Assembly (NCBI RefSeq): GCF_056746865.1
Contig: NZ_CM163382.1
Reading direction: 5' to 3' (one strand)
Length of the DNA stretch: 64,000 bases
Shown: piece after piece, positions 16,134-36,718 of the stretch
Numbering within the stretch: position 1 is the first letter of the stretch
How the letters are laid out: each line of letters opens with the position of its first letter
Position numbers and translations under genes: made by a program
The notes under the pieces: model-generated
Seen by the model: only the letters and a program-made list of their open reading frames with translations
Told to the model about the DNA's origin: nothing
Databases searched by the model: none

Positions 16134-16806
16134 GGTTCCTCCTTGCTGAGCCACGGCCCCTGATTGACGGTGCGTTCCCCAAACAACCATTGCTGACGAT
16201 TTAAAGGAACATCCCGGCGGCGCAATATTTTGCTCGCGACCAGGCCGTCGTGCTCCCCTTCCCACCAGCATTCATCCTGAAGTTTCGGGAGTGCGATTTT
16301 CAGGTCGTGGAAATGCTCCTGATACTGGTGATATGCGTTACGTAAAACATCAGACGCGTTGCCTTCAAGCAGTAACGGCGCAAGTGGTAATGCCAGCGGA
16401 TGACTTTTTCGCCCCAGATAAAGCGGAAAAACTGGATGGCGTAAACCGCCCTGCAACTGTTCGAGGCTGTAAGGCGCATCGGCTGTTGTTGCCACCGCCA
16501 CCATCCACCAGGCGTCGGTGTAGTAGTCGCGCCGGGAGATAATCGCGCTCAGAAGATCAGGGTCGCTCAACTCTTCGCGACGGCTGAAATAACGCGCTTT
16601 ACGCACCTCTTTTGGCATCTGGATTGTGTGATAATCCCGTGCCCAGCGCGGGTTACGGCTGGCGCAAACCACCAGTGAATAGTGGCGGTTAAACACGTTT
16701 AATCGTTCGGTATCATCACGCCGAATCCCTACCCCGGCAGCCAGCAGCCCCAGCAATGCTGAGCGCGAAGGCAGTTCATGGGTATGACGCACTTCGCCCG
16801 CTCCAA
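16115..16806 (-). pseudogene. cas5e: cas5e (casD) lacking its 5' end; homology stops at the island junction
   Basis: The frame reads ...GAGEVRHTHELPSRSALLGLLAAGVGIRRDD...PLYLGRKSHPLALPL (Cas5e hallmarks). The roughly 15-20 N-terminal codons, including the conserved WG segment, are missing. The TTG start at 16810 in the track is created by the junction. Confidence 0.8.
16792..16806 (+). repeat. Left island junction core (attL-like): CTTCGCCCGCTCCAA
   Basis: Identical 15-mer at 36704-36718. It lies inside the cas5e reading frame, where the reverse complement encodes GAGE. Confidence 0.75.
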
Positions 16807-16969
16807 ACAAACATTTCTCAACGTCTACTGAAGTCCATCAAATCCACGAATATCAAGCCTTTCAGCCATTTTCATAGCTTATTAACGTCTACTCACAACT
16901 ACCAGAATCTACACACAGAAGTGTATAGTAATGCGTATAGGACAAAATTTATTTTTTGGAGCTATACAC

Positions 16970-18184
16970 ATGCTGCTTTCAGACCTTGCTATCAGGCGCG
17001 CGAAGCCGAAAGAAAAGGCTTATACACTCAATGACGGTAACGGGCTTTCGTTACTCATTGAGCCGAACGGCTCGAAAGGGTGGCGACTACGTTACAGATT
17101 TGCAGGAAAGCCCAAAATGTTGTCGTTGGGCGTGTACCCTGATGTGTCTCTGTCTGATGCCAGAGCGGCAAGGGATGAGGCTAAAAGGCTTCTTGCTGGT
17201 GGTATAAATCCAAGTGAGGCCAGAAAAGCTCAAAAGCGAGAACAGGCGAGCAAATTTGGCAATACTTTTGAGGGTATCGCTCGCGAATGGTATGAAAAGC
17301 GGATCGACAGGTGGTCATCGTCATACGCCGAGGAAATGATCGAGACGTTTGAAAAAGACGTTTTTCCGTACATTGGCGGCAGGCCGATCGCAGAAATTAA
17401 GCCAATGGAGTTGCTTGCGGTTCTCTCCCGTCTTAATGACCGTGGGGCGACCGAAAAATTGCGTAAGGTTCGCCAGCGATGCGGCGAGGTGTTCCGGTAC
17501 GCAATCATCACCGGACGCGCTGAATATAACCCCGCACCAGATCTGGCAAGCGCATTTGCTCCACACAAAAAAGAGCATTATGCCTATTTGAAGGCCGACG
17601 AACTGCCGGAATTTTTCCGCGTTCTTAATACGTACACCGGAAGCCAGATCGTCAAGCTGGGTATGCGATTATTGATTCTGACAGGGCTCCGGCCAGGGGA
17701 ATTACGACAGGCAGAATGGCAGGAGATCGATTTTGATAATCGTTTGTGGGAAGTGCCTAAAGAACGAATGAAGATGCGCCGTCCTCATTGTGTGCCGCTT
17801 TCAGAACAGGCGATCGCTATTCTGGAACAGTTAAAACACATGACGGGGCAGTATCAGTTTATTTTCCCTGGTCGAATCCAGCACAGTAAGCCGATGAGTG
17901 AAATGGCGATGAACGTGCTTATTCGTCGTATTGGCTATTCTGGGCGCGTTACTGGTCATGGGTTCCGGCACACGATGAGCACGATTTTACATGAGCAGGG
18001 CTATAACACCGCGTGGATAGAAACGCAGCTTGCACACGTTGATAAGAACTCAATTCGTGGCACGTACAATCATGCGCAATATCTGGACGGGCGGCGCGAG
18101 ATGCTCCAGTGGTACGCCGACTATATGGACTCACTGGAACAGGGCGGCAACGTGGTGCATGGCAAGTTCGGAAAATGTGGATGA
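16970..18184 (+). CDS. int: P4-type tyrosine recombinase / integrase
   Basis: 404 aa from MLLSDLAIRRAKPKEKAYTLNDGNGLSLLIEPNGSKGWRLRYRF (typical P4-integrase N-terminus). Catalytic region HGFRHT...RGTYNH. GGAG RBS upstream. Confidence 0.92.
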   Translation: MLLSDLAIRRAKPKEKAYTLNDGNGLSLLIEPNGSKGWRLRYRFAGKPKMLSLGVYPDVSLSDARAARDEAKRLLAGGINPSEARKAQKREQASKFGNTFEGIAREWYEKRIDRWSSSYAEEMIETFEKDVFPYIGGRPIAEIKPMELLAVLSRLNDRGATEKLRKVRQRCGEVFRYAIITGRAEYNPAPDLASAFAPHKKEHYAYLKADELPEFFRVLNTYTGSQIVKLGMRLLILTGLRPGELRQAEWQEIDFDNRLWEVPKERMKMRRPHCVPLSEQAIAILEQLKHMTGQYQFIFPGRIQHSKPMSEMAMNVLIRRIGYSGRVTGHGFRHTMSTILHEQGYNTAWIETQLAHVDKNSIRGTYNHAQYLDGRREMLQWYADYMDSLEQGGNVVHGKFGKCG

Positions 18185-18312
18185 CTGGTTGAGTATACAG
18201 TAGTAGACTTTGAGCGACGAAAGAAAAAGCTGTGTCTAGGGTCGCTCCCGAAAAACCGTATACCTCGACGGGCTGGCACAGCCACTACAGTAGAGGACGC
18301 TGAGGTGTGCGT

Positions 18313-19110
18313 ATGATTGATATTCATGCCGAATTAAACGAATACAAAAAAGATTTTATTTCTTTACGTGAATTTCTTGAGGTCGTGCTTAAGGTCGCTG
18401 GTGATGATTATGATGTTTCAGATCTCATAACTTGGATACTCAGGAGAATAAGCGGAGAACATATCCGCCTGTACACAGTAAATGAATTTAAGCTGTTGGA
18501 ATCTTTTTGTAACCCGTATCGGGATGAATTTGATTATGATGTTCTTTATAGAAATCTGGATGCGGTTCGGAAACATGGTTGTTTACCTGGTGAGAGGGAT
18601 GAAAATGGTTTTCTGGTGTCCGGTTATTGGGAAGATCCCGAATTTGAGAACATTGGATTTATAAGGGGTGAAATTTTCGCAATTTTTCCCGATGTCCTTG
18701 ACGCGTTAACGAAGCTGGAAGGCGCTAACTCTTCTGAAAATGACGAGGTACAAGGACGCGATATTGAAAAGAAAGAGTTGCGTACAGAGGATGATTTATT
18801 ATCCCAAATCGCAATGCTGGAAAGAGAAAACGCAGAGTTAAGGGCAAGGATAGAGCAGTTAGAGCAAGAGCGCCCGATACACTTATATAAATACTGGGAT
18901 AAAGACCCATTAGCTAAGGCTATTGAGATTAGAAACAGAGAGTGGGCCAATTACGATCCAGAAAATGATTTTGCCACCAGGGGAAATCAAGAAGCGATAA
19001 CTAGGGAGCTTAAGCAGTGGGGGGCAAGTAATGCTCTTGCAACGCTCATAGAGAGGACTGCCTGCCCTATTAACCGAGACAACAGCCAAAAGAACGCAAA
19101 GCCGGATTAA
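18313..19110 (+). CDS. Hypothetical protein with a central acidic region and a coiled coil (LSQIAMLERENAELRARIEQLEQE)
   Basis: 265-aa ORF (ATG at 18313 after GAGGTG). Lower GC than the flanking int. I recognise no family motif. Confidence 0.6.
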   Translation: MIDIHAELNEYKKDFISLREFLEVVLKVAGDDYDVSDLITWILRRISGEHIRLYTVNEFKLLESFCNPYRDEFDYDVLYRNLDAVRKHGCLPGERDENGFLVSGYWEDPEFENIGFIRGEIFAIFPDVLDALTKLEGANSSENDEVQGRDIEKKELRTEDDLLSQIAMLERENAELRARIEQLEQERPIHLYKYWDKDPLAKAIEIRNREWANYDPENDFATRGNQEAITRELKQWGASNALATLIERTACPINRDNSQKNAKPD

Positions 19111-19125
19111 CGCACCATACCGCAT

Positions 19126-19270
19126 ACCCTGAGGGTGATTTACTGTTACCCTGAGGGTATTTTTTTATCTTCCCCGTCAATTTTACCATCACCCTTAGGG
19201 TAGATTTCCTCCCGATTACCATCACCCTTAGGGTTAATTTCCTTCCGGTAACCATTAGGCCTGAGGGTAT
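19126..19270. promoter_or_regulatory. Array of five CCYTNAGGGT palindromic motifs, including a ~30-bp direct repeat, upstream of alpA
   Basis: ACCCTGAGGGT at 19126 and 19148. TACCATCACCCTTAGGGT(A/T)(G/A)ATTTCCT(C/T)CC at 19184-19213 and 19217-19246. CCTGAGGGTAT at 19260. Confidence 0.5.
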
Positions 19271-19337
19271 GAAAATATTCGTTATTTCTGTGCCATGATT
19301 ACCTCGTCAAATTGAGTAGACGTTATGAGGTAAATAG

Positions 19338-19535
19338 ATGTCAAATACGCTTATTCGTTTAACAGAAGTTCAGCGTAGAACTGGATATAGCAAGGCATGG
19401 ATTTATCGCCTTATGGGGCAAGGTAAATTTCCTGCATCAGTTAAAATTGGCTCGCGAGCGATTGCTTTCGTTGAAAGTGAAATTGACGAATGGATCAATC
19501 AGCGTATTGCCGAATCACGCGGAACGGCTGCCTGA
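19338..19535 (+). CDS. alpA: AlpA/Vis-family small DNA-binding regulator or excisionase
   Basis: 65 aa: LIRLTEVQRRTGYSKAWIYRLMGQGKFPASVKIGSRAIAFVESEIDEWI, the classic AlpA HTH pattern. Confidence 0.85.
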   Translation: MSNTLIRLTEVQRRTGYSKAWIYRLMGQGKFPASVKIGSRAIAFVESEIDEWINQRIAESRGTAA

Positions 19536-19610
19536 TTAAATAGCTACGGGTTATTGCCCAAGCTATCCACTAGCAAATAAAAAGTAACTTAATTCGATAG
19601 CGGAGTTTTT

Positions 19611-20435
19611 ATGAAACTGCGAAAAACGCCCGTACAGGGGCAGGGCTTTGTTCGGCCTGAAAACCAGAATCTGCAAAATTTCGGCGAAATTATCCCGGTT
19701 ATTTCCGGCGTTATTGGCGGGCGTGAAGCCGCTGTTGTTAGCGCAAAAGCGTTACACAAAGCGTTGGGCGTGGGAAAAGACTTCTCTACATGGATCACTG
19801 ATCGTATCTCTGAATATGACTTCACCATTGGGTACGATTACTCAGTCCATAAAACAATTTCCCCAAATTTGGGGAAAAGCCCGAATGGCGAGGCTTACAG
19901 CAAGATTAAGCACTCTGGCAGACCCGGTAAAGACTATCTGTTAAGTGTCGGAATGGCGAAAGAACTGGCAATGATCGAACGCACCGAACAGGGCCGCGCC
20001 GTTCGTCAGTACTTCATCAAATGCGAGGAGGAGCTACACAAGGTAGCGCCTGTACGTTCCGCAGCGTTACGCCGGGAACTGAAAGCCCGTATCACCGTAG
20101 CCAGCTACTTTAAGCCAATGTGTGCCGCGCTGGAGGCGTACCGGGCTGAACTGGGTAAAAACACGCTCCAGCACCACTACACCACGGAAGCCAATATGCT
20201 GGCGCGTATCGTGCTGGGTGGCATGAATGCAAAACAGTGGGCGCAGGCGAACGGCATCACAGGCGAACCACGCGACCACATGAGCACGCTGCAGCTTGAG
20301 CACCTTTCTTACCTTGAGCAGAGCAATATCACGCTGATTGAGTTAGGCCAGGACTACCACCAGCGGAAAGCTGAATTAATTCGTCTTTCGCAACGCTGGT
20401 TAGCCCGCCGCATGGAGGTGAGCAGCCATGCGTAA
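19611..20435 (+). CDS. AntA/AntB-type phage antirepressor domain protein
   Basis: 274 aa. The N-terminal segment VVSAKALHKALGVGKDFSTWITDRISEYDF and LLSVGMAKELAMIERTEQGRAVRQYFIKCEEEL resemble AntA/KilAC antirepressor domains. Confidence 0.65.
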   Translation: MKLRKTPVQGQGFVRPENQNLQNFGEIIPVISGVIGGREAAVVSAKALHKALGVGKDFSTWITDRISEYDFTIGYDYSVHKTISPNLGKSPNGEAYSKIKHSGRPGKDYLLSVGMAKELAMIERTEQGRAVRQYFIKCEEELHKVAPVRSAALRRELKARITVASYFKPMCAALEAYRAELGKNTLQHHYTTEANMLARIVLGGMNAKQWAQANGITGEPRDHMSTLQLEHLSYLEQSNITLIELGQDYHQRKAELIRLSQRWLARRMEVSSHA

Positions 20436-20985
20436 ACCTGTCTTTTATGCCGGTCGCACTGAAATCTCTGTCATTAAATTCGATGACATTCAGGTGCGCA
20501 TAGTGAGTATCAACGGCGAGCCGTGGTTTGTTGGCGCTGATGTGTGTGCCGCGCTGGAAATCAGCAATGTTACTGATGCCGTTTCAGTTCTGGATAACGA
20601 TGAGGTAATGACCCTAGCTTTAACCGAGGGTCATTCCGGTAAGCGTGGTGGTGCCAGAAGCTGGAATGTTGTCTCTGAATCAGGTTTCTACAAACTGATC
20701 GCCCGCAGCCGTAAAGCTTCCACACCAGGCACATTTGCGCACCGTTTCAGTAACTGGGTATTCCGCGAGGTGATTCCTTCAATCCGCAAAACGGGGGGTT
20801 ATGGTGTTCCGTTTGCCATGCTGAATGATTTCAGTAAACGTCAGGCTGCATATCAACAGGAAGCCAGCAAACGCGGTTACAGGTTACAGCAATGCAAAGA
20901 GGCAAAAGATGCACTGGAACGAGAAGAGCGGGCGCTATGGCGTAAATATCAGCCTGATTTTCTGGAGGGTGAAAGCAATGTGTAA
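20428..20985 (+). CDS. Bro-N domain (prophage antirepressor-like) protein
   Basis: 185 aa. FDDIQVRIVSINGEPWFVGADVCAALEI...SESGFYKLIARSRK...FSNWVFREVIPSIRKTGGY is a typical Bro-N pattern. Overlaps the upstream gene by 8 nt. Confidence 0.75.
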   Translation: MRKPVFYAGRTEISVIKFDDIQVRIVSINGEPWFVGADVCAALEISNVTDAVSVLDNDEVMTLALTEGHSGKRGGARSWNVVSESGFYKLIARSRKASTPGTFAHRFSNWVFREVIPSIRKTGGYGVPFAMLNDFSKRQAAYQQEASKRGYRLQQCKEAKDALEREERALWRKYQPDFLEGESNV

Positions 20986-21153
20986 CGATCCGAACGTTAC
21001 AGAAAGAAAAAGCGCCCCGTTGCTGGATAACAGGCAAAACAAAGGCGACCGGGATAGGTCGCCAGTGGGAACAAAGGAAATCAAACGCATCGCCAACAAT
21101 GCCAGATTTGCGGCTGGTGGGCAATGTGATCAGTGTGCTGGCTTGCTGGTGGG

Positions 21154-21351
21154 CTATTCCTGCTCTTTAGCATCGCCATACTGCGATGTTTTCCAGGTAT
21201 GCGATTCCATTTTTGTGCGCCTGTACTCTTTTAAGAACTTCTCAAGGACAAACGCACATGGCGCAAATCTTTCCTGTTCTTGTTCGCTTACCGCATTTTT
21301 GCGTTGTTTTTTCCTGGATGAGGATAATTTCTTTAATGATTTGTCAGTCAT
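21154..21351 (-). CDS. Small basic hypothetical protein (65 aa); its C-terminus is paralogous to the neighbouring RHH protein
   Basis: ORF ending ...GDAKEQE. Weak RBS. Same size and tail as the 21409-21606 ORF. Confidence 0.4.
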   Translation of the reverse strand: MTDKSLKKLSSSRKKQRKNAVSEQEQERFAPCAFVLEKFLKEYRRTKMESHTWKTSQYGDAKEQE

Positions 21352-21408
21352 CGTAGATACCTGTAACCCTGTGCGCCACAGTTCACCGCACCACGGCGCT
21401 GGTGATGG

Positions 21409-21606
21409 TTACTCCTGCTCTTTGGCCTTCCGGCGCTGTTCATATTTTAATTTGCGTCCACAGGCATCTAAGACCCATGCGGAAAAATTAGCACTAGGAT
21501 TAGTTAATTTTTCTTGTTCAACACTGGCATCAATCCCATCTATAAGCTCGTGCGGGAATCGAATATTTTTCTTTGCTGATTTGTTGTTTGTGTTTCCGCT
21601 AGACAT
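21409..21606 (-). CDS. Ribbon-helix-helix (Arc/MetJ-like) DNA-binding protein; candidate island repressor
   Basis: 65 aa. NIRFPHELIDGIDASVEQEK...NFSAWVLDACGRKL fits a beta-strand/helix/helix RHH pattern. Good GAGGTG RBS. Divergent from the replication operon. Confidence 0.55.
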   Translation of the reverse strand: MSSGNTNNKSAKKNIRFPHELIDGIDASVEQEKLTNPSANFSAWVLDACGRKLKYEQRRKAKEQE

Positions 21607-21674
21607 TGGTACACCTCACTTAAATGGATTTGATGGGCGCACACAATACAGCAAAAAAAGTGAGAAGTTAAGTA

Positions 21675-21703
21675 TTGACATGTGCGCACACATGATTTTA
21701 ATC
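21675..21703 (+). promoter_or_regulatory. Putative sigma-70 promoter with a palindromic operator in the spacer, driving the icd-like/primase operon
   Basis: TTGACA (21675-21680), then the perfect palindrome TGTGCGCACA (21681-21690), then a TTAATC/TAATCT -10 candidate 17-18 nt downstream. Related GCGCACACA and TGTGCGCAAG copies lie nearby. Confidence 0.4.
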
Positions 21704-22264: not shown

Positions 22265-22266
22265 AC

Positions 22267-22569
22267 ATGAAGAAGATTAAATTTACTGGCTTAAATGCCA
22301 GCGGACAGACTCACCCGAAAATCAGGATCGGGGATATTTTCCGGGATAAATATGGTGACAGCGTGGTTATTAATTCCGTGTATGAACGGCACATTACATA
22401 CCGCCGCGCAGGGTACGACTATGACTGTGTGATGCCCGTTCATCAGTTCCGGCGTGATTTTTCACTGGTATGTGCAGCACCACGCAGTAAGCCCACCAGT
22501 AAAGAGAAAGCACGGGCAAATATTCAGGTAATAAAGAACATGATTAACGCATTCAGGGGCAAGAAATGA
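22267..22569 (+). CDS. Hypothetical protein (100 aa), possibly DUF4222-like
   Basis: ORF tightly packed between neighbours. Its 3' end overlaps the primase start (ATGA). Confidence 0.5.
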   Translation: MKKIKFTGLNASGQTHPKIRIGDIFRDKYGDSVVINSVYERHITYRRAGYDYDCVMPVHQFRRDFSLVCAAPRSKPTSKEKARANIQVIKNMINAFRGKK

Positions 22570-24692
22570 AACGCGCACCGAATTTAAAGCACCAGCCGAA
22601 AGACAAAATGACGGAGGTGATTATCTTTGCGGGTAGTGATGCCTGGGCACATGCGAAAGAGTGGAGCGAATGGGCCGGAAAGCATATTGCGGCAGATGAT
22701 ACACATCCAGTTATTCTTGGACCGGAACAACTGGCGAGTCTGGCAGACACGCAAATCATCGACAAAGGGCGCTATTACGTGCGCGTTTATCGTGCTGGTG
22801 AAATATCAGAGCAGCACCTTACACAGATAGCGACACTGCTTGCAGTGGCGGGTGTGAAGGAGGCGCGTTGCTACCGCAGCTTTGTTGATCAGCAGCCGGA
22901 GGACTGGACACCGCGCATGGCTGGACTGAAGGATGATGCGGAACGCGGTAACAGTCTGGTGATCAACCTTCCGGCGAAGACAAATTTCACCGGAAATTAT
23001 GATGACGAATTAAAGCCTCGTGTTGAAAGTCGCGTCGATGGTGTTTTCTGGGTAACGCCCAAAGTGGACAAGCAGTCAGGCGAAATTATCCGGCCTGAGA
23101 CGTGGTTATGTTCTCCGCTTGAACTACTGGGAACAGGAACAATCGGCAAAGAGCATTACCGCGTGATGCGCTGGAAAAAACCAGCAAACCATGAGGTCAT
23201 TACAATGGCGGTCCCGTGCGGAGGCATTGGTGACCGTGACGGCTGGCGGTTGCTGAAAGACCACGGCCTTAACGTGACGACCAACGGCAAATACAGGGCT
23301 ATCTTGGCTGACTGGATGCAGTTAAGCGGAAACCATGAGGAATGGCAGTTAAGCACAACAACGGGGTGGCATTTTGGTGCGTACATCATGCCGGATGGTT
23401 CGATCATCGGTGAATCAGAGAAACCCATCCTGTTTACCGGAAAAACTGCCGCTGTTAATGGCTATTCCGTGGCGGGAACAGCGGAGGGCTGGCGCGATAC
23501 CGTGGCACGGCTGGCTGGTGGTAATCCGTCCATGATGCTGGGTGTGGCGGTATCGCTATCTGCACCATTAATCGGGCTGGTGGGTGCTGACGGCTTCGGG
23601 GTTCATCTTTTTGAGCAATCATCAGCAGGTAAAACCACCACACAGAACATTGCATCAAGTTTATGGGGAGAGCCGGACGCGCAACGGCTGACCTGGTACG
23701 GAACGGCGTTAGGTATCGCCAACGAGGCCGAAGCACATAATGACGGGCTGTTACCCCTGGATGAAATAGGCCAGGCCGGAAACGCACGGGAGGTGTCCAC
23801 GTCAGCCTATACGCTGTTTAACGGTTCCGGGAAATTACAGGGGGCGAAGGACGGCGGCAACAGGGAGATAAAACACTGGCGTACGGTGGCAATCAGCACC
23901 GGAGAAATGGACGTTGAAACATTCCTCAAAACGGAAGGGATAAAAATTAAAGCGGGACAGCTTGTCCGTCTGCTTAACGTACCGATGGAAAAGGCCTCGC
24001 AGTTTCACGAATACAGCACCGGAAAGGCGCACGCAGACGCGTTAAAAGATGCCTGGACAGAAAATCACGGGGCGGCAGGTCGTGAGTGGGTTAAATGGCT
24101 GGCAGGCCACCAGCAGGAGGCAAAGGACGCGGTAAGGGCATGTCGCGAGCGGTGGCGCAACCTGATACCGGAGAGCTACGGCGAGCAGGTTCACCGTGTG
24201 GGGGAAAGATTCGCCGTACTGGAGGCCGCGCTTGTGCTTTCCGGTCATGTTACAGGCTGGGATGTTCAGGCGTGCCGTGATGCAGTTCAGCATAACTTTA
24301 ATGCCTGGGTGAAGGAATTCGGCACGGGCAACAGGGAATTTAAACAGATGGTTGAACAGGCTGAGGCGTTTTTGTCGTCGTTCGGGTTCAGTCGATACCT
24401 TCCCTATCCAAACAGCGACGAGCGTGATTTACCGATTAAAGACCTTGCCGGATACAGAAAGGGGAGTATCAGAAACGAAGATGACGAGTTCCGTTTTTAC
24501 ACGTTCCCGCATGTGTTTGAGGGTGAGATAGCACAGGGATTTAATCCGTCTCACTTTGCCCGCGCGTTGAGTGCAGCCGGAATGCTGGAAGCGGGAGGCG
24601 ACCGCCGTTACAAGAAAAAGGCGCTCGGCAGGATTGGCGGGAAGCAACATATTTTTTACGTGCTGATGTTCCAGCCTGAAGCAGAAGATTAA
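22566..24692 (+). CDS. Satellite/prophage replication protein: primase-helicase with P-loop (DUF927-type)
   Basis: 708 aa. Walker A FEQSSAGKTTTQ and Walker-B-like LLPLDEIGQ. The size and its position just before the iterons match P4-alpha / PICI Pri-Rep-like proteins. Confidence 0.8.
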   Translation: MKRAPNLKHQPKDKMTEVIIFAGSDAWAHAKEWSEWAGKHIAADDTHPVILGPEQLASLADTQIIDKGRYYVRVYRAGEISEQHLTQIATLLAVAGVKEARCYRSFVDQQPEDWTPRMAGLKDDAERGNSLVINLPAKTNFTGNYDDELKPRVESRVDGVFWVTPKVDKQSGEIIRPETWLCSPLELLGTGTIGKEHYRVMRWKKPANHEVITMAVPCGGIGDRDGWRLLKDHGLNVTTNGKYRAILADWMQLSGNHEEWQLSTTTGWHFGAYIMPDGSIIGESEKPILFTGKTAAVNGYSVAGTAEGWRDTVARLAGGNPSMMLGVAVSLSAPLIGLVGADGFGVHLFEQSSAGKTTTQNIASSLWGEPDAQRLTWYGTALGIANEAEAHNDGLLPLDEIGQAGNAREVSTSAYTLFNGSGKLQGAKDGGNREIKHWRTVAISTGEMDVETFLKTEGIKIKAGQLVRLLNVPMEKASQFHEYSTGKAHADALKDAWTENHGAAGREWVKWLAGHQQEAKDAVRACRERWRNLIPESYGEQVHRVGERFAVLEAALVLSGHVTGWDVQACRDAVQHNFNAWVKEFGTGNREFKQMVEQAEAFLSSFGFSRYLPYPNSDERDLPIKDLAGYRKGSIRNEDDEFRFYTFPHVFEGEIAQGFNPSHFARALSAAGMLEAGGDRRYKKKALGRIGGKQHIFYVLMFQPEAED

Positions 24693-24716
24693 CTTCCCTG
24701 TGTGAGGTAAAAAGTT

Positions 24717-24841
24717 GCGGGTTATGCGGGTTATCCTGTGCATAAGTTAATTAACTGAATGATTAAAAAGGAAATTAATAACCCGCACGTAACCCGCAAA
24801 ACGGCAGTTATAACCCGCAAATGTGCGATTGTAACCCGCAA
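24717..24841. repeat. Iteron cluster 1 (ori/crr-like): 2 tandem TGCGGGTTA, an AT-rich spacer, then 4 inverted TAACCCGCA spaced 11/21/21 bp
   Basis: TGCGGGTTA at 24717 and 24726. TAACCCGCA at 24780, 24791, 24812 and 24833. The AT-rich core is 24745-24779. The cluster starts 25 bp after the primase stop. Confidence 0.7.
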
Positions 24842-24902
24842 AATTTCACTGTAAGAGTGTAAACAAGCGTAACTATCACGTTAAAACCGGAGAACAAACA
24901 GC

Positions 24903-25328
24903 ATGACGGCGCAAATATCAGCTTACGGGCGGCTGGTGGCTGACCCGCAGTTAAAGACCACCAGCAAGGGCACACAAATGGCGATGGCGAGTATGGCGGT
25001 CCCCCTTCCATGCAATCAGACAGATGACGGAACGGCGACGATGTGGTTATCCGTCCTGGCGTTTGGCAGACAGGCTGACGCACTGGCAAAACACCACAAA
25101 GGCGAACTGGTGAGCGTGGCCGGTAACATGCAGGTGAGCTGGTGGACGGGCCAGAACGGCGAAACGAGGCAGGGATGGCAGGTTATCGCAGACAGCGTAA
25201 TCAGTGCGCGAACGGCGCGACCGGGCGGCAAAAAAGGCCAGCAGGGGCAGGCTACTGATGCACTGAACAGGGCAAAGCAACAGACAGGCCAGCACGATGA
25301 TCCGTACGGGGACGGGATACCGTTTTAA
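24903..25328 (+). CDS. ssb: Single-stranded DNA-binding protein (OB fold) with SSB-like acidic C-terminal tip
   Basis: 141 aa. YGRLVADPQLKTTSKGTQMA... is an OB-fold pattern. A G/Q-rich linker leads to the C-terminus DDPYGDGIPF (compare E. coli SSB, ...DDDIPF). Confidence 0.7.
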   Translation: MTAQISAYGRLVADPQLKTTSKGTQMAMASMAVPLPCNQTDDGTATMWLSVLAFGRQADALAKHHKGELVSVAGNMQVSWWTGQNGETRQGWQVIADSVISARTARPGGKKGQQGQATDALNRAKQQTGQHDDPYGDGIPF

Positions 25329-25828: not shown

Positions 25829-25850
25829 AGGCCAAAGTATAATTTGGCAT

Positions 25851-27059
25851 ATGAAACGACTACAAGCTTTCAAATTCCAGTTAAGACCAAATGGAAAACA
25901 GGAGCGTGAAATGAGGCGCTTCGCGGGCGCATGTCGTTTCGTTTTCAATCGTGCTCTGGCGCTTCAGAATGAGAATCATGAGGCCGGGAACAAATATATT
26001 TCTTATGCAAAGATGACTTCCTGGCTGGTTGAATGGAAAAATGCTACTGAAACGCAATGGCTTAAAGATTCTCCCTCACAGCCATTGCAGCAGTCACTGA
26101 AAGACCTTGAGCGAGCCTACAAAAATTTCTTTCAGAAGCGTGCCGCTTTTCCCCGATTCAAAAAGCGGGGACAGCATGATGCATTCCGCTATCCGCAGGG
26201 TGTTAAGCTCGATCAGGAAAACAGCCGTATTTTTCTGCCGAAACTGGGCTGGATGCGCTACCGGAACAGCCGTCAGGTCACGGGTGTTGTGAAAAATGTC
26301 ACTGTCAGCCAGTCCTGCGGTAAGTGGTACATCAGTATTCAGACAGAAAGTGAAGTATCAACTCCGGTTCACCCTTCAGCATTAATGGTCGGGCTGGATG
26401 CTGGCGTGGCTAAACTCGCCACGCTGTCAGATGGCACGGTCTTTGAGCCTGTAAACAGTTTTCATAAAAACCAGAAGAAGCTGGCGAGACTTCAGCGCCA
26501 GTTAAGCCGCAAGGTTAAATTCAGCAACAACTGGCAGAAGCAGAAACGCAAAATACAGCGACTGCATTCCCGTATCGCAAATATCCGCAGGGACTACCTT
26601 CACAAAGTCACAACGACCATCAGCAAAAACCACGCAATGATAGTCATTGAGGATTTGAAGGTCAGCAACATGTCAAAGTCAGCCTCGGGTACGGTCAGCC
26701 AGCCGGGGCGCAATGTCCGGGCAAAATCAGGTTTAAACCGTTCGATACTGGATCAGGGCTGGTATGAAATGCGCCGTCAGCTTGAGTACAAGCAGCTCTG
26801 GTGTGGCGGTCAGGTGCTTGCTGTTCCGCCAGCGTACACAAGCCAGCGTTGCGCGTGCTGTGGTCATACAGCGAAAGAAAATCGCCTGTCACAAAGTCAA
26901 TTCAGATGCCAGGTATGTGGATATACAGCGAACGCCGATGTAAACGGCGCTCGTAACATTTTAGCGGCGGGGCACGCCGTTCTTGCCTGTGGAGGGATGG
27001 TGCAGTCAGGCCGCCCGTTGAAGCAGGAACCCACCGAAATGATTCAGGCGACAGCCTGA
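25851..27059 (+). CDS. tnpB: TnpB (OrfB_IS605) RuvC-like RNA-guided nuclease
   Basis: 402 aa. RuvC triad contexts GLDAGV, VIEDLK and ADVNGARNI, plus a zinc finger CACCGH...CQVCG. All appear intact. Confidence 0.9.
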
Positions 27060-30224: not shown

Positions 30225-32284
30225 TGTCTGATGTTTTTTCTTTGGCTCCAGAAGGTCAGGCATGGATTGACGACAAAACAGTTGCCAACCCAGCAAGGCC
30301 AGAAGACTACGATCCGACTCCCTTCCAGGGTTCAGGTACTGCACTTTTGAGCGGCGTGGCGGAGGGGGCTCTCGGTCTCGCGCAGTCTGCCGTCGGATTC
30401 AGCAAGCGTCTGATTAGCGATCCGGCATTTACCGCAGACGTGGCACCGACAGTTAATATTTTTCGGGAGATGTTCCCTGATGCTGACAAAACACTGAATG
30501 ATACATACGACACGATCGGAAAACAGTTACAGGATGCCCGCAGCTATGTGAAGCCTGATGCAGGCAGCCAGGGAATGGCGGCTGAGGTATTAAATGAGCT
30601 TGGTAAATTTGTTCCTGCAATCGGAACAACTATGTTTGGTGGTCCGCTCATCGGCGCTGCTACAGCCTTCAGTTCTACGTATGAGCAGTCCTATCAGGAT
30701 TTTAAAGGGAAGGGAGTAGACGAGGCTACAGCGCGTAACCTGGCAACGCAGCAGAGCCTTTTCAATGCTGTGGGTATGGCCTTACCCGCTGCCGTCGGCA
30801 CCACACTGGCAACGCGCATTGCCTCAGGTGTGGCAATCAACACCGGATTCGGTGGACTGAACCGTTACTCAGTAGGCGCAACACTGGAGGAAAAAGGCTA
30901 CACGGAGATGGCAAAACAGTATCGGGTATTTGACGGTCAGGCGATGTTAGTCGATGCCGTTTTAGGCGGGGTCTTTGGTGGCGTTCATCACCTGACTACC
31001 CATAATAACCATGATGGTACAGAGTCGAACATTTCTGCAGAAGAAATAAAATCAACTTTTGGTGAACATTATCAGCAATCTCCTGATGGTAACATTGAGT
31101 CAATGGTTCGTGATTTATCTGATTCAGGAGTAATAGAACTTATTAATGAACCAGCAATAAAAAATAGTGATGGAGAAATACTTCTGAATAAAGGTCATGT
31201 GACAGTAGCTTCCGGAAAAGAACCAATAATAAGAATAAATATTAATGGATTAAAAGACCATGAAGAACTGTTAGAAACCCTTCATCACGAGGCGCTTCAT
31301 CTTGAGCAGCGCCATTACCCTGACTGGAAGGCCAGAAAGCTAGCTAATGCTGTACTTAAATCTGCAAACAAGCATTCTGACTATCCTGAATTTGCATATG
31401 GGATGTCACAATATTATGAATATAAGAAAAGGGGTGAGTACCCTGAAACATATCCTGAGTGGTTGTACGCTGAAGAAGTTGCCGCACATGCAGTAAATCC
31501 ATCTCTAAAGACAAGCGTTTCATCATGGGAAAAAATTATTTCAGGTTTTAAAGCCTATATATTCAGATACAGTGGTATTCAGGTTGGAACCGTTACACCT
31601 GAGCAGTTACGGTTACTCGTAAGTATGCGTCTTCGCAATATGAAACTGGAAGCCGCAGTAGAAAAAGTTTTTGGTATCCGGGCGAGGGAAAGAATAAAAC
31701 CAAGCGATATTGATGCAGCCCACATTTTGAATGAGGGGCTTCATTACGATATTGAATCGTCACCAGTGCTTCATACCAGCAATGAGAGCATCAACAGCCA
31801 TGTTGACGCCATGGATGAAGCATACAGGCAACTTAATGATGGTCAGCCTGTAAATGTTGGGGGGATGGCGCGAGGGCTTGATGGTCCATTGCGATCAGAT
31901 ATATCTGATACTTACCAAGAGCAATACCATGAAATACAAAAGGTTTTTGAAGAAAATGGTGTCAGATACGAAACATCATCAGAGCCAATTAGTGAATCGC
32001 CTGTCCCTCGTGCTGAAAGTGCTTTCTCATCGGCTGGTGAACACAGAGGGGACATCAGCGTTGATCCAGATACAGGGCAGGTTCTCTCATCCAACAGCTA
32101 TGACCTTATGGCTGCCAGGGACATGGCTGTTGCCAATCCTGAGCTGACTATAGCTCACCCGGAAACCGGAAACCCGACAAAACTTTCTGATCTCCTGGCT
32201 GAGTTGGATGAACAGATTAAGACAGTCCAGAACGAATCGAAGGTTTATTCTGTAGCAGCAGCGTGCTTCTTGAGGAACCCATAA
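30224..32284 (+). CDS. Large protein (686 aa) with Gly/Ala-rich hydrophobic segments and an internal HExxH (zincin-like) module
   Basis: TAATG overlap with the upstream gene. Hydrophobic G/A-rich stretches (GTTMFGGPLIGAATAF, AVGMALPAAVGTTLATRIASGVAINTGFGG). HHEALH at nt 31283-31300 within an AT-rich segment. Confidence 0.75.
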   Translation: MSDVFSLAPEGQAWIDDKTVANPARPEDYDPTPFQGSGTALLSGVAEGALGLAQSAVGFSKRLISDPAFTADVAPTVNIFREMFPDADKTLNDTYDTIGKQLQDARSYVKPDAGSQGMAAEVLNELGKFVPAIGTTMFGGPLIGAATAFSSTYEQSYQDFKGKGVDEATARNLATQQSLFNAVGMALPAAVGTTLATRIASGVAINTGFGGLNRYSVGATLEEKGYTEMAKQYRVFDGQAMLVDAVLGGVFGGVHHLTTHNNHDGTESNISAEEIKSTFGEHYQQSPDGNIESMVRDLSDSGVIELINEPAIKNSDGEILLNKGHVTVASGKEPIIRININGLKDHEELLETLHHEALHLEQRHYPDWKARKLANAVLKSANKHSDYPEFAYGMSQYYEYKKRGEYPETYPEWLYAEEVAAHAVNPSLKTSVSSWEKIISGFKAYIFRYSGIQVGTVTPEQLRLLVSMRLRNMKLEAAVEKVFGIRARERIKPSDIDAAHILNEGLHYDIESSPVLHTSNESINSHVDAMDEAYRQLNDGQPVNVGGMARGLDGPLRSDISDTYQEQYHEIQKVFEENGVRYETSSEPISESPVPRAESAFSSAGEHRGDISVDPDTGQVLSSNSYDLMAARDMAVANPELTIAHPETGNPTKLSDLLAELDEQIKTVQNESKVYSVAAACFLRNP

Positions 32285-35040
32285 TGAAACAGGCATGTGT
32301 GGAAGCTATTGCGCAGACACTTGGTCGCCAGCCAAAGGCTGATGAGCTGAAAAATATTGAAGATCGTATCAAAGAAGCTGTGCAGCATGTGCACAGAAAG
32401 AATGCCAAAGAAGGCAAAAGTGGTATTCCTGATGCTCAAACATACATGGATGCAGCAGAACTGGTACGCCAGCGTGTGGTTCATGATGTGTACAAGAAAA
32501 GACAGCGTGTTGCCCAGAATGCGATCGCCATCAGTAAAATTACTGACACTCTCGATGCTAACATCCCGCCTGATCAGCAGACACCTGTTAATTTGCAGCA
32601 GTTTATTTTTGCTGGCCGACGATCGAGAGACAAAGCTGATATCTCCGTTACTTCTGCTGAAGAACTTGCAATTGGGGCATATCAGGACTGGTCCCGTCAG
32701 CTCAGTGCTGAACTTCTAAAAGCAGGTGATGACGTCCGCAAATTCTTCGAGCAGAGCAGGGCGCTTGGAGAGCAGCGGTTTCGGAGTGTATTCGACAGGC
32801 AGGCGGCAAAGTCTGCACAACTCCAGATCCTGAAAGAAATATATGGCGAAGATACCGGGAATCCCCTGGCGAAGAAAATTGCACAGATTTGGAAGGATGT
32901 AACAGGCCGTGTTCGTCATGAGATGAACGACAATGGCTTTGACATAGGCCTGCGAGAAGACTGGCATACGCCATATGTGGATGATGCTGACCTTATTCGC
33001 AATGCCGGGCGCGAAGAATGGCTGGCATCGTTACCAGTGGCAGAGCAAGCTACAGCACGTCTTTCAGGTCGCCAGCCACCGATTGAGTTTGCCCGCCAGA
33101 AATGGGTTGATGACGCTTACAACACGCAGGATCGCAGCAATTACGTTAATCCTGACGGCAGCATTATGAATGACGTCGAGTACCGTCAGGCACTGGAAGC
33201 GATCTTTGAAACGAAGGCCACTGATGGGGCAAACAAAATTGAGCCTGGTACATTTATGGGAGCCGGAGGAATAAAGAGCCGTGGTTCTCAGCACAGGGTG
33301 ATGGCGTTCAAGGATGCGCAGTCACACTTCGCCTATATGGAACGATACACTCAGCAGCCGCTGGTGGGGGTGATGATGTCGCACCTGCAATCATCATCCA
33401 GGGATTTGGGCGTCGTTAAAGCCTTTGGTCCGGACGCCGAAAGAAACTTTTCCCTGGTACTGGATCGCATCTATAAGCGCGCAGTAACAGGCGGGAAACG
33501 CAAAAAAGAAATGGAGGATGAGGCCAAATTAGTTGCCCGTATGTTCAACTCAATGGCTGGCCTAAATGGTGTCGCTTCATCGAGTGTGTTCTCTTCAGCA
33601 GTTGGTGGTCTGCGTAACCTGATGACCAGCGCCATGCTTGGCACCAGCGTACTGACAGCAACCAGCGACCAGGCAATTATGCGGGCAAATGCGCAGGCGC
33701 TGGGCTTTACCCGTGGTGGAATGCGGCTTTCCGTTAACACTATCAAAAACCTGTTTAGTGGAGATGCCAAAAAGGCGAATGCTGAACTCGGTCTGCTGGT
33801 GGATTCACATGCTGCTGTGGTTTCGAAAATGGGCGGGTTTGACTTGTCTCGCGGCATAACTGGCTGGTTCGCAGAGAAGACACTGAAGTGGTCCGGGCTG
33901 ATCGCTATGGACCGCGCAAACAAAGCGTCGTTTGGTCTCCTGATGTACAAAAACATTGGCGAGCTGACCAGAAAATTTAAGACGCTGGACGATATGAAAG
34001 GAACCGATAAAACCATTCTGGCTAACAAGGGATGGAGCAATGAGGACTGGGCCATCATGGCAGCGGCAGAACTCAGGCCGATGACTACTGCCGGGCATAT
34101 GGGGATGACGCCAGACGCGATTTACGCTGTGCCCGATAACGTAATAGCCGACATTATGGCAGACCGTATTACCCGGATTCGTGCCGGGAGTGAAAAGGCA
34201 CTGGCAGCCCTTGGAGATCTCCCTCCAGAACGCCTGAAACGGATGAAAGAAGCATTCGACGCTGAGGCTGAGCAGACCATCACGCGCATGATTCGTAATG
34301 CACGCGCTGAAGCAGCCCAGAAATTGCTGGGAATTACGCACGGTGAGATGACCAATGCTGTGACCACCGCTACGGGTATTGATACATATGCCCGTGATGA
34401 TGCTGGCGAGTTAATGAAGAGCTTCATGCTCTTCAAAACAACCCCATTTGCTGGATTTCGGCAACTTGTTAACAGAACACGGGATTTGGACACCGTTCCG
34501 GCCATTAAATTTCTGGCCTCATATATCGGGGGAACAACTCTTGCTGGTATGTTTGCGATCCAGATGAACAGTTTGTTAAATGGTAATGATCCGCTGGATA
34601 TGACAAAACCAACCACATGGGTTCAGGCTTTACTGAAAGGTGGTTCGTTCGGTATCTACGGTGATTTTATTTTCCAGGACCATACGCAATATGGCTCCAG
34701 CATCGGTGCCACTATGGGTGGCCCTGTGTTGAGCTTTGCAGAGCAGTTAACAAAATTACTGATTACTAACCCACAGAAGGCTCTACAGGGTGAAGAAACA
34801 TCATTCGGTGCCGATGCACTGAAAACAGCCCGCATGATCACCCCATTCGCAAACCTGTGGTATGCGAAAGCGATAACCAATCACCTGATATTGCAACAAC
34901 TTCAGGAGATGGCAAACCCTGGTTACAATGATCGAGTAAGGGACCGCGCGCAACGGGAGTTCGACATAACGAGTTGGTGGGAACCGGGTGCTATTGCGCC
35001 ACGTAGAGCACCGGATTTTGGAAAGGCGGTGGGGAACTGA
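32284..35040 (+). CDS. Large protein (918 aa), unknown function; candidate ejection/structural-type protein
   Basis: ATG at 32284 in a TAATG overlap (preferred over the track start at 32263). Long uninterrupted frame with only antisense shadow ORFs opposite. C-terminal hydrophobic G-rich region (IGGTTLAGMFAIQMN...GGSFGIYGDFIF). Confidence 0.75.
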   Translation: MKQACVEAIAQTLGRQPKADELKNIEDRIKEAVQHVHRKNAKEGKSGIPDAQTYMDAAELVRQRVVHDVYKKRQRVAQNAIAISKITDTLDANIPPDQQTPVNLQQFIFAGRRSRDKADISVTSAEELAIGAYQDWSRQLSAELLKAGDDVRKFFEQSRALGEQRFRSVFDRQAAKSAQLQILKEIYGEDTGNPLAKKIAQIWKDVTGRVRHEMNDNGFDIGLREDWHTPYVDDADLIRNAGREEWLASLPVAEQATARLSGRQPPIEFARQKWVDDAYNTQDRSNYVNPDGSIMNDVEYRQALEAIFETKATDGANKIEPGTFMGAGGIKSRGSQHRVMAFKDAQSHFAYMERYTQQPLVGVMMSHLQSSSRDLGVVKAFGPDAERNFSLVLDRIYKRAVTGGKRKKEMEDEAKLVARMFNSMAGLNGVASSSVFSSAVGGLRNLMTSAMLGTSVLTATSDQAIMRANAQALGFTRGGMRLSVNTIKNLFSGDAKKANAELGLLVDSHAAVVSKMGGFDLSRGITGWFAEKTLKWSGLIAMDRANKASFGLLMYKNIGELTRKFKTLDDMKGTDKTILANKGWSNEDWAIMAAAELRPMTTAGHMGMTPDAIYAVPDNVIADIMADRITRIRAGSEKALAALGDLPPERLKRMKEAFDAEAEQTITRMIRNARAEAAQKLLGITHGEMTNAVTTATGIDTYARDDAGELMKSFMLFKTTPFAGFRQLVNRTRDLDTVPAIKFLASYIGGTTLAGMFAIQMNSLLNGNDPLDMTKPTTWVQALLKGGSFGIYGDFIFQDHTQYGSSIGATMGGPVLSFAEQLTKLLITNPQKALQGEETSFGADALKTARMITPFANLWYAKAITNHLILQQLQEMANPGYNDRVRDRAQREFDITSWWEPGAIAPRRAPDFGKAVGN

Positions 35041-35354
35041 TGACGAGAGATAAAATTGAATATATTGCTTCTCTTAAATATGAAGCTGAGAAATGGAGAA
35101 GGATTGGCGGGTGGGGAACATTAATATCACTCTCTGCTTTACTTATAGACTCCTGGTTCAGACATATTGATGCAGCATCATTACTTTTTGAATCAGCAGT
35201 ACTTGGTGGATTCATTTGCTGTTGGGGTGGTAATTATGATCGGGCGTCCAAACATAAGAGAGAACTTGACGCGATATGTTTTGCTTTATTCGGTAAGGAT
35301 TACGAAAGTTCTGACCTTGATATAATTGAATTCAACAAAACGGAACTATCGTGA
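35040..35354 (+). CDS. Small predicted two-TM membrane protein (104 aa), last gene of the operon
   Basis: TGATG overlap with the upstream gene. Hydrophobic segments WGTLISLSALLIDSWF and SAVLGGFICCWGG. AT-rich. Confidence 0.55.
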   Translation: MTRDKIEYIASLKYEAEKWRRIGGWGTLISLSALLIDSWFRHIDAASLLFESAVLGGFICCWGGNYDRASKHKRELDAICFALFGKDYESSDLDIIEFNKTELS

Positions 35355-35362
35355 CATGTCAC

Positions 35363-35387
35363 AGGCCGCTTTCGCGGCCTTGTTTTT
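35363..35387 (+). terminator. Rho-independent terminator of the giant-protein operon
   Basis: AGGCCGC-TTTC-GCGGCCT hairpin followed by TGTTTTT, 9 nt after the stop codon. Confidence 0.65.
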
Positions 35388-36058
35388 AACGAATGCCACC
35401 GCCGCCCGGGCGGGAATTCGCAGATAAAAAAGCACGCTGCACGGTTTTATTAATACTTATACCATTAGGATTGATCCTTCAATGGACAATCCTTCCATCG
35501 TGTGGCCAGCCATTCATATTCTTTGTCTTTTCTTCAGTATCGGCTTTGCATCTTCTACACCCTGAAAGATGTCGTTTTATGGTGTATCTGATGATTTATT
35601 CCCTAACAATAGATATTCGAAAAATTAATCAGTTAAAACAATTATTTGGATAATTTCAGGTAAAACTATCTTAATCTTCTGGTGGATCTCAATGCGTAGT
35701 GACGGTATCGGGATTAAGGGCGTGGATATTCGCGATATATGCCGCTACACCCCTCAACAGTAATAGATATGAGCTTTTCACGCTCTCCTTTCACTGCTGA
35801 GAACGGCAACAACGTGCCACAGGAACGCGCTGTAATCGATTCTGACGCACTTAATTGCGTTGGGTAATGGTTTTTGCCAGCCTGTGGGGGTAACTCTGTT
35901 TTATGAGGCTTTGGCTATAGTGCAAAAATACACTTTGTCTTGCCTCTCAATTTGATGAGACTGGAACGACAACAGGACAGACCACCAGCAACAGTTACCG
36001 TATTCAGCCGTTCTGTGGCACCAGTGGAACTATCAACCCCTGCTTTCAGCAATGTGTT

Positions 36059-36212
36059 TGCGGGTTATTTTGGGGCGTTTGCGGGTTATTTGGGATGTTT
36101 TGCGGGTTATGTGATGCTTGAATAATGAACAGTGTATTTTGCAACATATTGATACTAAAGAACAAAAAATAGTTAGCATACTAAGATAACCCGGTAACCC
36201 GCATAACCCGCA
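36059..36212. repeat. Iteron cluster 2: 3 TGCGGGTTA spaced 21/21 bp, an AT-rich spacer, then tandem inverted TAACCCGCA copies; a mirror image of cluster 1
   Basis: TGCGGGTTA at 36059, 36080 and 36101. TAACCCGG (degenerate) at 36187 and TAACCCGCA at 36195 and 36204. The AT-rich core is about 36121-36186. Confidence 0.65.
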
Positions 36213-36618
36213 CTGTTTTGTATATATATACGAAAAATTGCATTCAGGAGGGGGGGAGCGAAATCCCTACAATCCATTGCTTATGGGACCGCCCGCCTCG
36301 TCAAATTTTTACACCCGCGAAATAAAAAAATACTTCACGCTGGTGGGCATGATGCTGATATGGGAGGCTTCCATAACGCCACCATTCGGAACTATGCAAA
36401 TCTGCATAGAAAAGGGGATGCCTGATACAATACCCTCGCCCGATAAAATCACACCGATAAACTCATCTGCCACGAGTAGAAAGAGCGAACGAACCCGATA
36501 CGCAGTAATGCTTGTCGGGTACAGCTTTTTAAGGCGGCTGTAGATATCAGGCCATCCGTGATCATCCACCAGCGAGATAGCCGATAACGATGACGCATAA
36601 CCCTCAAGCGAGGGATAA

Positions 36619-36642
36619 ATGTGTATAGAAATGTGTATAGAA
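36619..36642. repeat. Tandem 12-bp repeat ATGTGTATAGAA x2; candidate integrase arm-type sites
   Basis: Exact tandem copies 62-85 bp left of the right core. GTGTATAG also occurs at 16921-16928, and inverted (CTATACAC) at 16962-16969, next to the int start at the other end. Confidence 0.35.
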
Positions 36643-36699
36643 TTGATTTTAGAACTCGCAGGATTCGCGCTATTACTGGCCTTGTGTGATGTTGTATTG

Positions 36700-36718
36700 T
36701 TCCCTTCGCCCGCTCCAA
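36700..36718 (+). other. Right island junction (attR-like): an 18-nt copy of a tRNA 3' end (TTCCCTTCGCCCGCTCCA) plus A; not a complete tRNA
   Basis: It matches the T-arm/acceptor/CCA end of E. coli tRNA-Gly(CCC) glyU as I remember it (…GGTTCGATTCCCTTCGCCCGCTCCA). Upstream sequence has no tRNA body. The 15-nt core is repeated at 16792-16806. Confidence 0.7.

Follow-up and report, generated by a model that had tools for sequence, protein, structure and literature searches.

A glyU-specific satellite island joined to a secondary site in cas5e, probably at a breakpoint of a ~136-kb inversion

The integrase of satellite phage P4 combines a DUF4102-type arm-binding domain with a SAM-like and a catalytic domain, targets the 3' end of a tRNA gene and is accompanied by an AlpA-type regulator. 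The island described here occupies positions 16792–36718 of a 64,000-nucleotide (nt) stretch of contig NZ_CM163382.1 (RefSeq assembly GCF_056746865.1), which is referred to as the window, and it can be compared with P4 and with several other known systems. In E. coli MP1, phage Kapi1 mobilises EcCIMP1, an experimentally verified phage-inducible chromosomal island (PICI) of 19,963 bp (PMC11773190). Its genes encode, in this order, an integrase, AlpA, an antirepressor, a DNA primase and a PerC-family regulator, and three hypothetical genes downstream of the primase resemble DNA-transfer (ejection) proteins of the helper (PMC11773190). The tRNA gene glyU, which is occupied by the GI-glyU islands, is an integration hotspot beside ETT2 in E. 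coli (bioRxiv 10.1101/860726). For phage lambda, secondary attachment sites were reported by Shimada et al. (1975); as far as they are summarized in PMC8637289, they are used at low frequency and share little with the primary site beyond the overlap region. In Thermococcus, the integrase of pTN3-like elements has been linked to large inversions with att or tRNA-derived breakpoints, and this archaeal enzyme has a homologous-recombination-like activity on segments of at least 104 bp (PMC5495485). Islands in glyU, secondary attachment sites, integrase-linked inversions and PICIs with helper-like ejection proteins are thus all known already. An attachment site in cas5e or a glyU–cas5e inversion is not described in the literature searched, a search whose coverage did not extend to subscription journals.

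The island is likely a PICI of the EcCIMP1 kind that used a secondary site in the CRISPR-Cas gene cas5e, with the window lying at one breakpoint of a ~136-kb inversion between cas5e and glyU. The original prediction, made from the letters of the window alone, had described a tRNA-targeting integrative element delimited by a 15-bp direct repeat from the 3' end of a tRNA-Gly gene. Its view of the element stands, as a glyU-specific island with arm-type repeats, but its view of the locus does not, as the left junction is in cas5e and not at a tRNA gene.

Hybrid Junctions at cas5e and glyU

The predicted repeat is exact and is the sole pair in the window: the 15-mer CTTCGCCCGCTCCAA occurs at 16792–16806 and at 36704–36718, both on the + strand, with no third copy in the window even at one mismatch and none in shuffled sequence. 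Extended to TTCCCTTCGCCCGCTCCA(A), the right copy equals positions 57–74 (the last 18 nt) of the annotated tRNA-Gly in strains 118UI, SCU-105 and ETEC1747, to which ARAGORN assigns the anticodon CCC in all three, so that the match to glyU given in the original prediction is confirmed. The right end is an ordinary glyU attR. The repeat cannot be read as a tRNA end at the left, however, where the site natively has only 7 of the 15 bases, CTTCGCC; the proposed alignment of both junctions to glyU matches at the right end, whereas the left end joins cas5e. The integrase gene begins with an ATG at 16970, 164 bp beyond 16806 as had been noted, and its product has the P4-type architecture that was expected (three-domain tyrosine integrase, Pfam). 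The short repeats anticipated near both ends were also located (Table 1), and GTGTATAG occurs six times in the window vs. 1.19 expected.

Copies of the island resident in glyU delimit it in the same way. In 17 complete genomes (SCU-105 and 16 others), a full-length copy lies between actS-glyU and ygeQ, and its ends align exactly at 16792 and 36718; island homology running past these points, which the original prediction had listed as evidence against itself, is not seen. The left-arm sequence also directly follows glyU in SCU-105 and ten other genomes, and the right arm is common to other glyU island variants, with many genomes aligning from query position 355 onward. At glyU in SCU-105, ETEC1747 and GCA_046604685.1 (contig L043), the island adjoins a complete tRNA-Gly(CCC), the tRNA being rebuilt by integration. 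The exact integrase protein is found in 2239 blocks of the public collection, and among the matches listed, 10 of 10 are next to actS-glyU. By its sequence features the island is a tRNA-targeting integrative element with a P4-architecture tyrosine integrase at one end and its own copy of a tRNA 3' end. The attR of the glyU copies in SCU-105 (L005 20647) and ETEC1747 (L006 25564) lacks one C to the right of the core, reading CTTCGCC-GCTCCAA, and the attR of the window is complete at that position. The missing C could impair excision of those two copies.

The crossover point was located by aligning the window with cas5e and glyU of 118UI and with both junctions of a cas5e insertion in ETEC1747. 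Intact cas5e in 118UI reads ...GGTATGACGCA-CTTCGCC-GGGGGCATCGACG... (in short, GACGCA-CTTCGCC-GGGGGCATC), and glyU reads ...GGTTCGATTCC-CTTCGCC-CGCTCCAATTTATCTTCACC... (GATTCC-CTTCGCC-CGCTCCAATTTATC). The left junction of the window consists of the left half of cas5e, CTTCGCC and the island sequence CGCTCCAAacaaac, and the right junction consists of the island sequence ...GTTGTATTGTTCC, CTTCGCC and the glyU flank CGCTCCAATTTATC. Seven of the repeated bases are therefore native to cas5e, and the other eight at the left belong to the tRNA-end copy of the island. ETEC1747 retains both hybrid junctions, GACGCA-CTTCGCC-CGCTCCAAacaaac and GTTCC-CTTCGCC-GGGGGCATC, the second of which continues into the cas5e 5' stub and then into cas7e. 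On either side of CTTCGCC, cas5e and the island have different bases, and the exchange of strands must therefore have taken place within these 7 bp. An overlap region of 7 bp is the size expected of a tyrosine recombinase. With both hybrid junctions recovered and the exchange placed inside the shared core, cas5e has the sequence hallmarks of a secondary attachment site.

Neither end of the island has a tRNA body, as the original prediction had remarked, and ARAGORN finds no tRNA gene in the whole 64-kb window. This absence is explained by the origin of the two ends, which come from chromosomal sites 136 kb apart that were joined by inversion. The body of glyU would then have to be at the second breakpoint of the inversion, beyond the limits of the window.

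The Proposed cas5e–glyU Inversion, Its Related States and Alternative Readings

The island is absent from 118UI, in which cas5e and glyU are both intact. Positions 1–16791 of the window correspond to 118UI 3,189,535–3,206,325 on the + strand, and positions 39001–64000 correspond to 118UI 3,315,045–3,340,044 on the - strand, each at 100% identity; positions 36700–41000 match 118UI with a single 1-nt gap. The two cores of 118UI, at ~3,206,326 and ~3,342,336, are 136 kb apart in opposite orientation. Since both flanks match 118UI, where their sites are on opposite strands and separated by 136 kb, the window reads as one breakpoint of a cas5e–glyU inversion. Essential genes within the 136-kb interval exclude a deletion, and the strand relations fit an inversion. 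In other strains, ygeQ/ETT2 DNA lies directly downstream of glyU. The GC skew changes from ~-0.1 to ~+0.1 across the island, which agrees with an inversion but is weak evidence.

Several public assemblies hold related states. ETEC1747 carries two inverted copies of the island encoding the same proteins, one complete at glyU and one inside cas5e, the latter flanked by both cas5e halves; this is the two-copy, not-yet-inverted state. In the cas5e copy of ETEC1747, nearly the whole integrase gene is lost, with just 93 nt of the arm-binding domain left (L001 12663–12755), and to move, this copy needs Int that the glyU copy provides in trans. A 154-amino-acid (aa) open reading frame (ORF) that fuses the Cas5e N-terminus to the right end of the island, predicted from the model, exists exactly in the public collection. 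In GCA_046604685.1, one 138.6-kb contig (L043) reads cas3-cse1-cse2-cas7-cas5e stub, island and complete glyU, and then runs ~122 kb past glyU; the island is a 10.3-kb variant and the cas part is 99.98% identical to 118UI. This contig is the reciprocal breakpoint. In SRR23378764, whose backbone is 98% and whose cas genes are 100% identical to 118UI, contig L045 joins the island right end to the cas5e stub as in GCA_046604685.1. Contig L007 of the same assembly fuses cas5e to the glyU flank without an island (...GACGCA-CTTCGCC-CGCTCCAATTTATCTTCAC..., then yqeG), and this junction is an excision scar on an inverted chromosome. In L007 (9673–10001), the 156-nt glyU-proximal flank is followed almost at once by yqeG, and the whole ETT2/ygeQ region is absent. 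SRR8989464 has the junction of island right end and cas5e stub in a cas allele 94.6% identical to 118UI. At least three cas backgrounds have thus been hit: the 118UI type, that of ETEC1747 (19 mismatches in 492 nt) and that of SRR8989464. The alternative-start Cas5e variants P0001, P0003 and P0011 (Shigella) were considered as further insertions and rejected, their cas loci being intact or frameshifted.

The first breakpoint (cas5e 3' part with glyU flank) is found in the window and in L007, and the reciprocal one (cas5e 5' stub with island/glyU) in L043, L044 and L045. Across these assemblies, both reciprocal breakpoints are located exactly at att cores; the window itself covers the first of the two. 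The cas5e–island junction of the window is also present in two clone-mates, SRR17709973 and GCA_031020925.1, the latter with 1 mismatch in 10,754 nt. Contigs L008 and L012 of these clone-mates end exactly 77 and 30 nt past the start of the core. For typical assemblers, these lengths correspond to k and k-1, and the left end of the island therefore has a second upstream context there. At window position 16804, the cas5e attL of L008 and L012 reads CGCTCAAAAC and not CGCTCCAAAC. From the pattern of contig ends, this variant should occur in the second left-end context as well, and glyU would there end in CAA rather than CCA.

A mechanism with two island copies is proposed for these states. Normally, the integrase joins the attP of the island to the last 19 nt of glyU, tRNA-Gly(CCC), and one copy would have integrated there. 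A replicating or excised sister copy would have entered cas5e in the opposite orientation, glyU being occupied then or later (as in ETEC1747), and integration at that site cuts cas5e after codon 21 and splits the casA-casB-cas7-cas5e-cas6e-cas1-cas2 operon. Recombination between the inverted copies would then flip the 136-kb interval and leave a hybrid copy with the attL of cas5e and the attR of glyU. The flip may be the work of RecA, to which as much as 20 kb of homology was available, or of Int/AlpA, which would recombine the attL of one copy with the attR of its partner. The source genome would hold, or would once have held, a second copy, and its other breakpoint would read actS-glyU-island-TTCCCTTCGCCGGGGGCATCG-cas7. 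Later excision of one hybrid copy is proposed to account for the SRR23378764 scar and for the island being single-copy in GCA_046604685.1.

Several observations weigh against the combination of cas5e insertion and inversion. Among 5426 complete E. coli genomes, cas5e is interrupted by the island in one (ETEC1747, where glyU is occupied too), although 2667 of them carry the cas5e allele of the window; set against the 17 copies in glyU, cas5e is therefore a rare secondary site. The scar and a naked glyU::cas5e hybrid are both absent from these 5426 genomes (BLAST with synthetic queries). The flanks of the cas5e site match the glyU attB at 15 of 36 bases, and two apparently unused CTTCGCC sites match at 17 and 16. 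The other breakpoint of the source genome lies outside the window, and exact look-ups of the truncated Cas5e and of the frameshifted YgeQ gave no record. The inversion and the island copy number in the source genome are judged at the level of the assembly, and SRR23378764 could be a mixed sample. A search with the 20-mer of the cas5e attL in GTDB species representatives and JGI metagenomes returned only chance matches in unrelated taxa. Similarity of the flanks, in which cas5e is unexceptional among 49 CTTCGCC contexts, was rejected as the reason for the preference for this site.

The inversion could also have arisen from a single copy. The island would then have been present only at glyU or only in cas5e, and Int would have recombined one of its att sites with the bare, inverted second site, which flips the same 136 kb. 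The other breakpoint would be a naked hybrid of glyU body and cas5e stub, actS-glyU(5' 67 nt)-GGGGGCATCG-cas7, with glyU inactivated. Integrase-catalyzed inversion between att sites has precedent (PMC5495485). In addition, SRR23378764 holds both reciprocal products of an exchange between attR and the cas5e site (the L007 scar and L045), and the GCA_046604685.1 contig reads straight through the island, which is therefore probably single-copy there. Two copies, one of which is later excised, lead to these same end states, however, and the two-copy intermediate is directly observed in ETEC1747. The clone-mate contigs, too, point to two contexts of the island left end, and an exchange between attL or attR and an unoccupied attB-like site is, as established for lambda-type Int, not among the canonical integrative or excisive reactions of arm-binding integrases. 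The single-copy route is thus considered unlikely.

A misassembly has been given a still lower probability and is judged improbable. Two non-inverted insertions, in glyU and in cas5e as in ETEC1747, might have been misjoined through the halves of two ~20-kb copies. Near-identical inverted repeats of 20 kb are hard to resolve, the short-read contigs of the clone-mates end at the island edge, and the difference in homopolymer length from 118UI is typical of long-read consensus error. Conversely, the inverted configuration is present in independent assemblies that had no repeat to bridge (L007 and the 138.6-kb contig L043), and even a misassembly would leave the secondary-site insertion in cas5e standing. 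That the island instead sits in an ordinary tRNA-Gly gene, with subsequent deletion or decay of the tRNA body, has practically no likelihood. The 15- to 19-nt repeat is indeed the glyU 3' end, but the sequence to the left of 16792 is uninterrupted cas5e, 100% identical to 118UI and free of any tRNA remnant; native cas5e has the 7-bp core at exactly that point, and in a related assembly the reciprocal junction is where the body of glyU lies. A further interpretation would add a function to the cas5e insertion, as a selected and reversible switch by which satellites park in the 7-bp site to shut down Cascade. Regulatory switches formed by phages, as known at comK in Listeria, would be a parallel, and because the core is identical on both sides, precise excision by Int/AlpA or re-inversion would restore intact cas5e; only slight credence is given to this idea. 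The insertion in cas5e combined with an inversion between cas5e and glyU thus remains the preferred reading.

Gene Content of the Island and Its Flanks

All island genes point in one direction (Table 1). They encode the integrase, followed by the int-alpA RNA, a 267-aa protein of unknown function, AlpA, AntA/AntB and BRO-N proteins, YlcI/YnfO, an Icd-like protein, a DUF4222 protein, a DUF927 primase and a protein that binds single-stranded DNA (SSB), then the TnpB segment and finally three large proteins of 843, 686 and 925 aa. The integrase domains PF13356, PF22022 and PF00589 were found with E-values of 2e-26 to 6e-33; among the matches listed, the best phage match is 49% identical (Erwinia phage phiEt88). 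The RF02996 motif between the integrase gene and the next ORF is the sole gathering-level Rfam match in the window. PF05930 is recorded for a 65-aa gene at the AlpA position in other copies of the island. The TnpB segment, 1.75 kb long and with no TnpA seen, stands in place of 983 bp of the SCU-105 copy, which there hold ProQ/FinO, a hypothetical gene and part of PerC.

Table 1. Features of the window discussed in the text, with window coordinates.
Feature	Position	Strand	Content or basis
Type I-E CRISPR array	13111..14176	-	18 repeats of CGGTTTATCCCCGCTGGCGCGGGGAACAC, 17 spacers
cas2e	14273..14566	-	NCBIfam TIGR01873, E=8e-39
cas1e, broken	14563..15486	-	199-aa ORF 14887-15486 spans profile positions 3-195 of 269
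cas6e	15483..16133	-	NCBIfam TIGR01907, E=8e-87
cas5e 3' part, codons 22-248	16115..16798	-	Translations; NCBIfam casD_Cas5e matched only from profile position 20
Crossover core CTTCGCC at attL	16792..16798	+	Sole bases common to native cas5e and glyU
Island left arm	16799..16969	+	Starts with CGCTCCAA, the island's own tRNA 3'-end copy; then GTGTATAG at 16921 (+) and 16962 (-)
Tyrosine integrase, 404 aa	16970..18184	+	Pfam Arm-DNA-bind_3, Phage_int_M and Phage_integrase
int-alpA RNA motif	18229..18296	+	Rfam RF02996, 46.9 bits vs. gathering score 35.8
AlpA-type helix-turn-helix regulator/excisionase, 65 aa	19338..19535	+	PHROG 'excisionase and transcriptional regulator'
AntA/AntB antirepressor and BRO-N genes	19611..20985	+	Annotation of 99.5% identical SCU-105 copy; Pfam tags
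Replication module: DUF4222 protein, 708-aa DUF927 primase, SSB	22267..25328	+	Pfam DUF927; phrog_1139 DNA primase, E=4e-174
TnpB-carrying segment	25355..27102	+	TnpB 25851-27059, 402 aa, IS200/IS605-type RNA-guided nuclease family
Three large genes, 843/686/925 aa	27693..35040	+	PHROG 992/1145/684
Island right arm	36554..36703	+	Tandem GTGTATAG at 36621 (+) and 36633 (+)
attR	36700..36718	+	TTCC, core CTTCGCC and CGCTCCAA; 19-nt copy of glyU 3' end
Chromosome normally downstream of glyU	36719..64000	+	ygeQ/GH15, then ETT2 type III secretion genes; inverted vs. left flank

The three large genes are collinear with three consecutive virion genes that lie just upstream of the tailspike gene in an epsilon15-like Uetakevirus, and they show 79.5% identity to phage VB_ST_E15. 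The aligned segments of the three proteins show 73–96% aa identity (tblastn), and the middle of the 686-aa protein (aa 246–479) is unmatched. Pfam and PADLOC gave no match for these three genes; a role as defence cargo was rejected on this ground and because PHROGs and tblastn lead to epsilon15-like virion genes. In the 843-aa protein, aa 249–364 form a lytic-transglycosylase segment common to T7-like internal virion proteins. The similarity suggests that ejection or tail-tube proteins are provided by the satellite itself and that its helper is epsilon15/phiV10-like, which would be a podophage. Apart from the three epsilon15-like virion homologues, no match to terminase, capsid or lysis genes was found in the island. 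Its layout, with int at one end, alpA, a primase/replication module and a single direction of transcription, is that expected of a PICI, judging from annotation. Assignment to the P4-like satellite class was rejected, as the P4 hallmark genes were not seen: Psu, Delta, Sid, Ash/epsilon and the alpha primase-helicase are not annotated in the SCU-105 copy (99.5% identical) and do not appear in the Pfam or PHROG results of the scanned proteins.

The left flank (window 1–16791) contains, in order, nlpD ... cysDNC, iap, the type I-E CRISPR array, cas2e, a broken cas1e, cas6e and most of cas5e. Without its first 21 codons, the cas5e reading frame extends into the left repeat, and what remains of it is 100% identical to 118UI up to 16798. 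This 3' part is separated from casA-casB-cas7 and their promoter. With the first 21 codons lost and cas6e-cas1-cas2 and the array cut off from the casA-casB-cas7 promoter, Cascade would be unable to assemble; this probable loss of function follows from the established biology of type I-E systems. An identical cas1e in 118UI is annotated with an 'internal stop', and the adaptation module was already dead in the lineage before the island arrived. Type I-E CRISPR-Cas is usually silent in E. coli, and together with the broken cas1 this limits the practical weight of the loss. Self-targeting by the adjacent array was tested as a source of selection for the loss of cas function. None of the 17 spacers matches the island (longest exact match 13 nt). 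Selection of the insertion for relief from self-targeting is not indicated.

In the right flank, ygeQ/GH15 is split near 38165 into two ORFs (36908–38221 and 38218–38559) by a 1-nt homopolymer difference relative to 118UI, TTTT vs. TTTTT. The split reflects a genuine frameshift or else an error in the long-read consensus.

Implications and Comparison With Known Systems

From natural events alone, the hybrid junctions narrow the region in which a widespread, glyU-specific integrase exchanges strands to 7 bp. They also identify a recurrent off-target in the type I-E cas operon of E. coli, at which Cas5e is removed and cas6e-cas1-cas2 are uncoupled from their promoter. If the inversion is as proposed, a satellite island can rearrange 136 kb of the core chromosome, including eno, pyrG, recBCD and thyA (by K-12 gene order). 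For annotation, the locus is a warning that perfect tRNA-type repeats are no proof of a tRNA locus and that the two ends of an island can stem from different loci.

Among the described systems, EcCIMP1 is similar in size (~20 kb), in gene order, in the three helper-like genes after the primase and in having no recognizable capsid or terminase genes, and PerC is present in sister copies of the window island. Whereas EcCIMP1 resides at tRNA-Thr with the core TCCTATTATC and has a P22-like helper, the window island belongs to glyU and carries epsilon15-like Uetakevirus genes; insertion into a cas gene or inversion has not been reported for EcCIMP1. P4 resembles the island in the domain architecture of its integrase, in targeting a tRNA 3' end and in its AlpA-type regulator, but Psu, Sid and Delta are not annotated in the island or in the SCU-105 copy, and the cargo is epsilon15-like and not P2-related. 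With the GI-glyU islands it shares the primary attachment site and the chromosomal neighborhood, and it differs from them in the left junction of the window, which has cas5e in place of the glyU body. As at the secondary sites of lambda, so far as the cited summary describes them, little more than the overlap is common to both sites and the hybrid junctions are clean; unlike those sites, the cas5e site lies in a defence gene, has been hit repeatedly in nature and, combined with an occupied primary site, would lead to an inversion. The pTN3-like elements are the parallel for this last step, in that an element with a tyrosine integrase is linked to a large inversion with att or tRNA-derived breakpoints. 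Here, in contrast to pTN3, the core common to both sites is 7 bp, and the flip could equally well be due to RecA working on two copies of the island.

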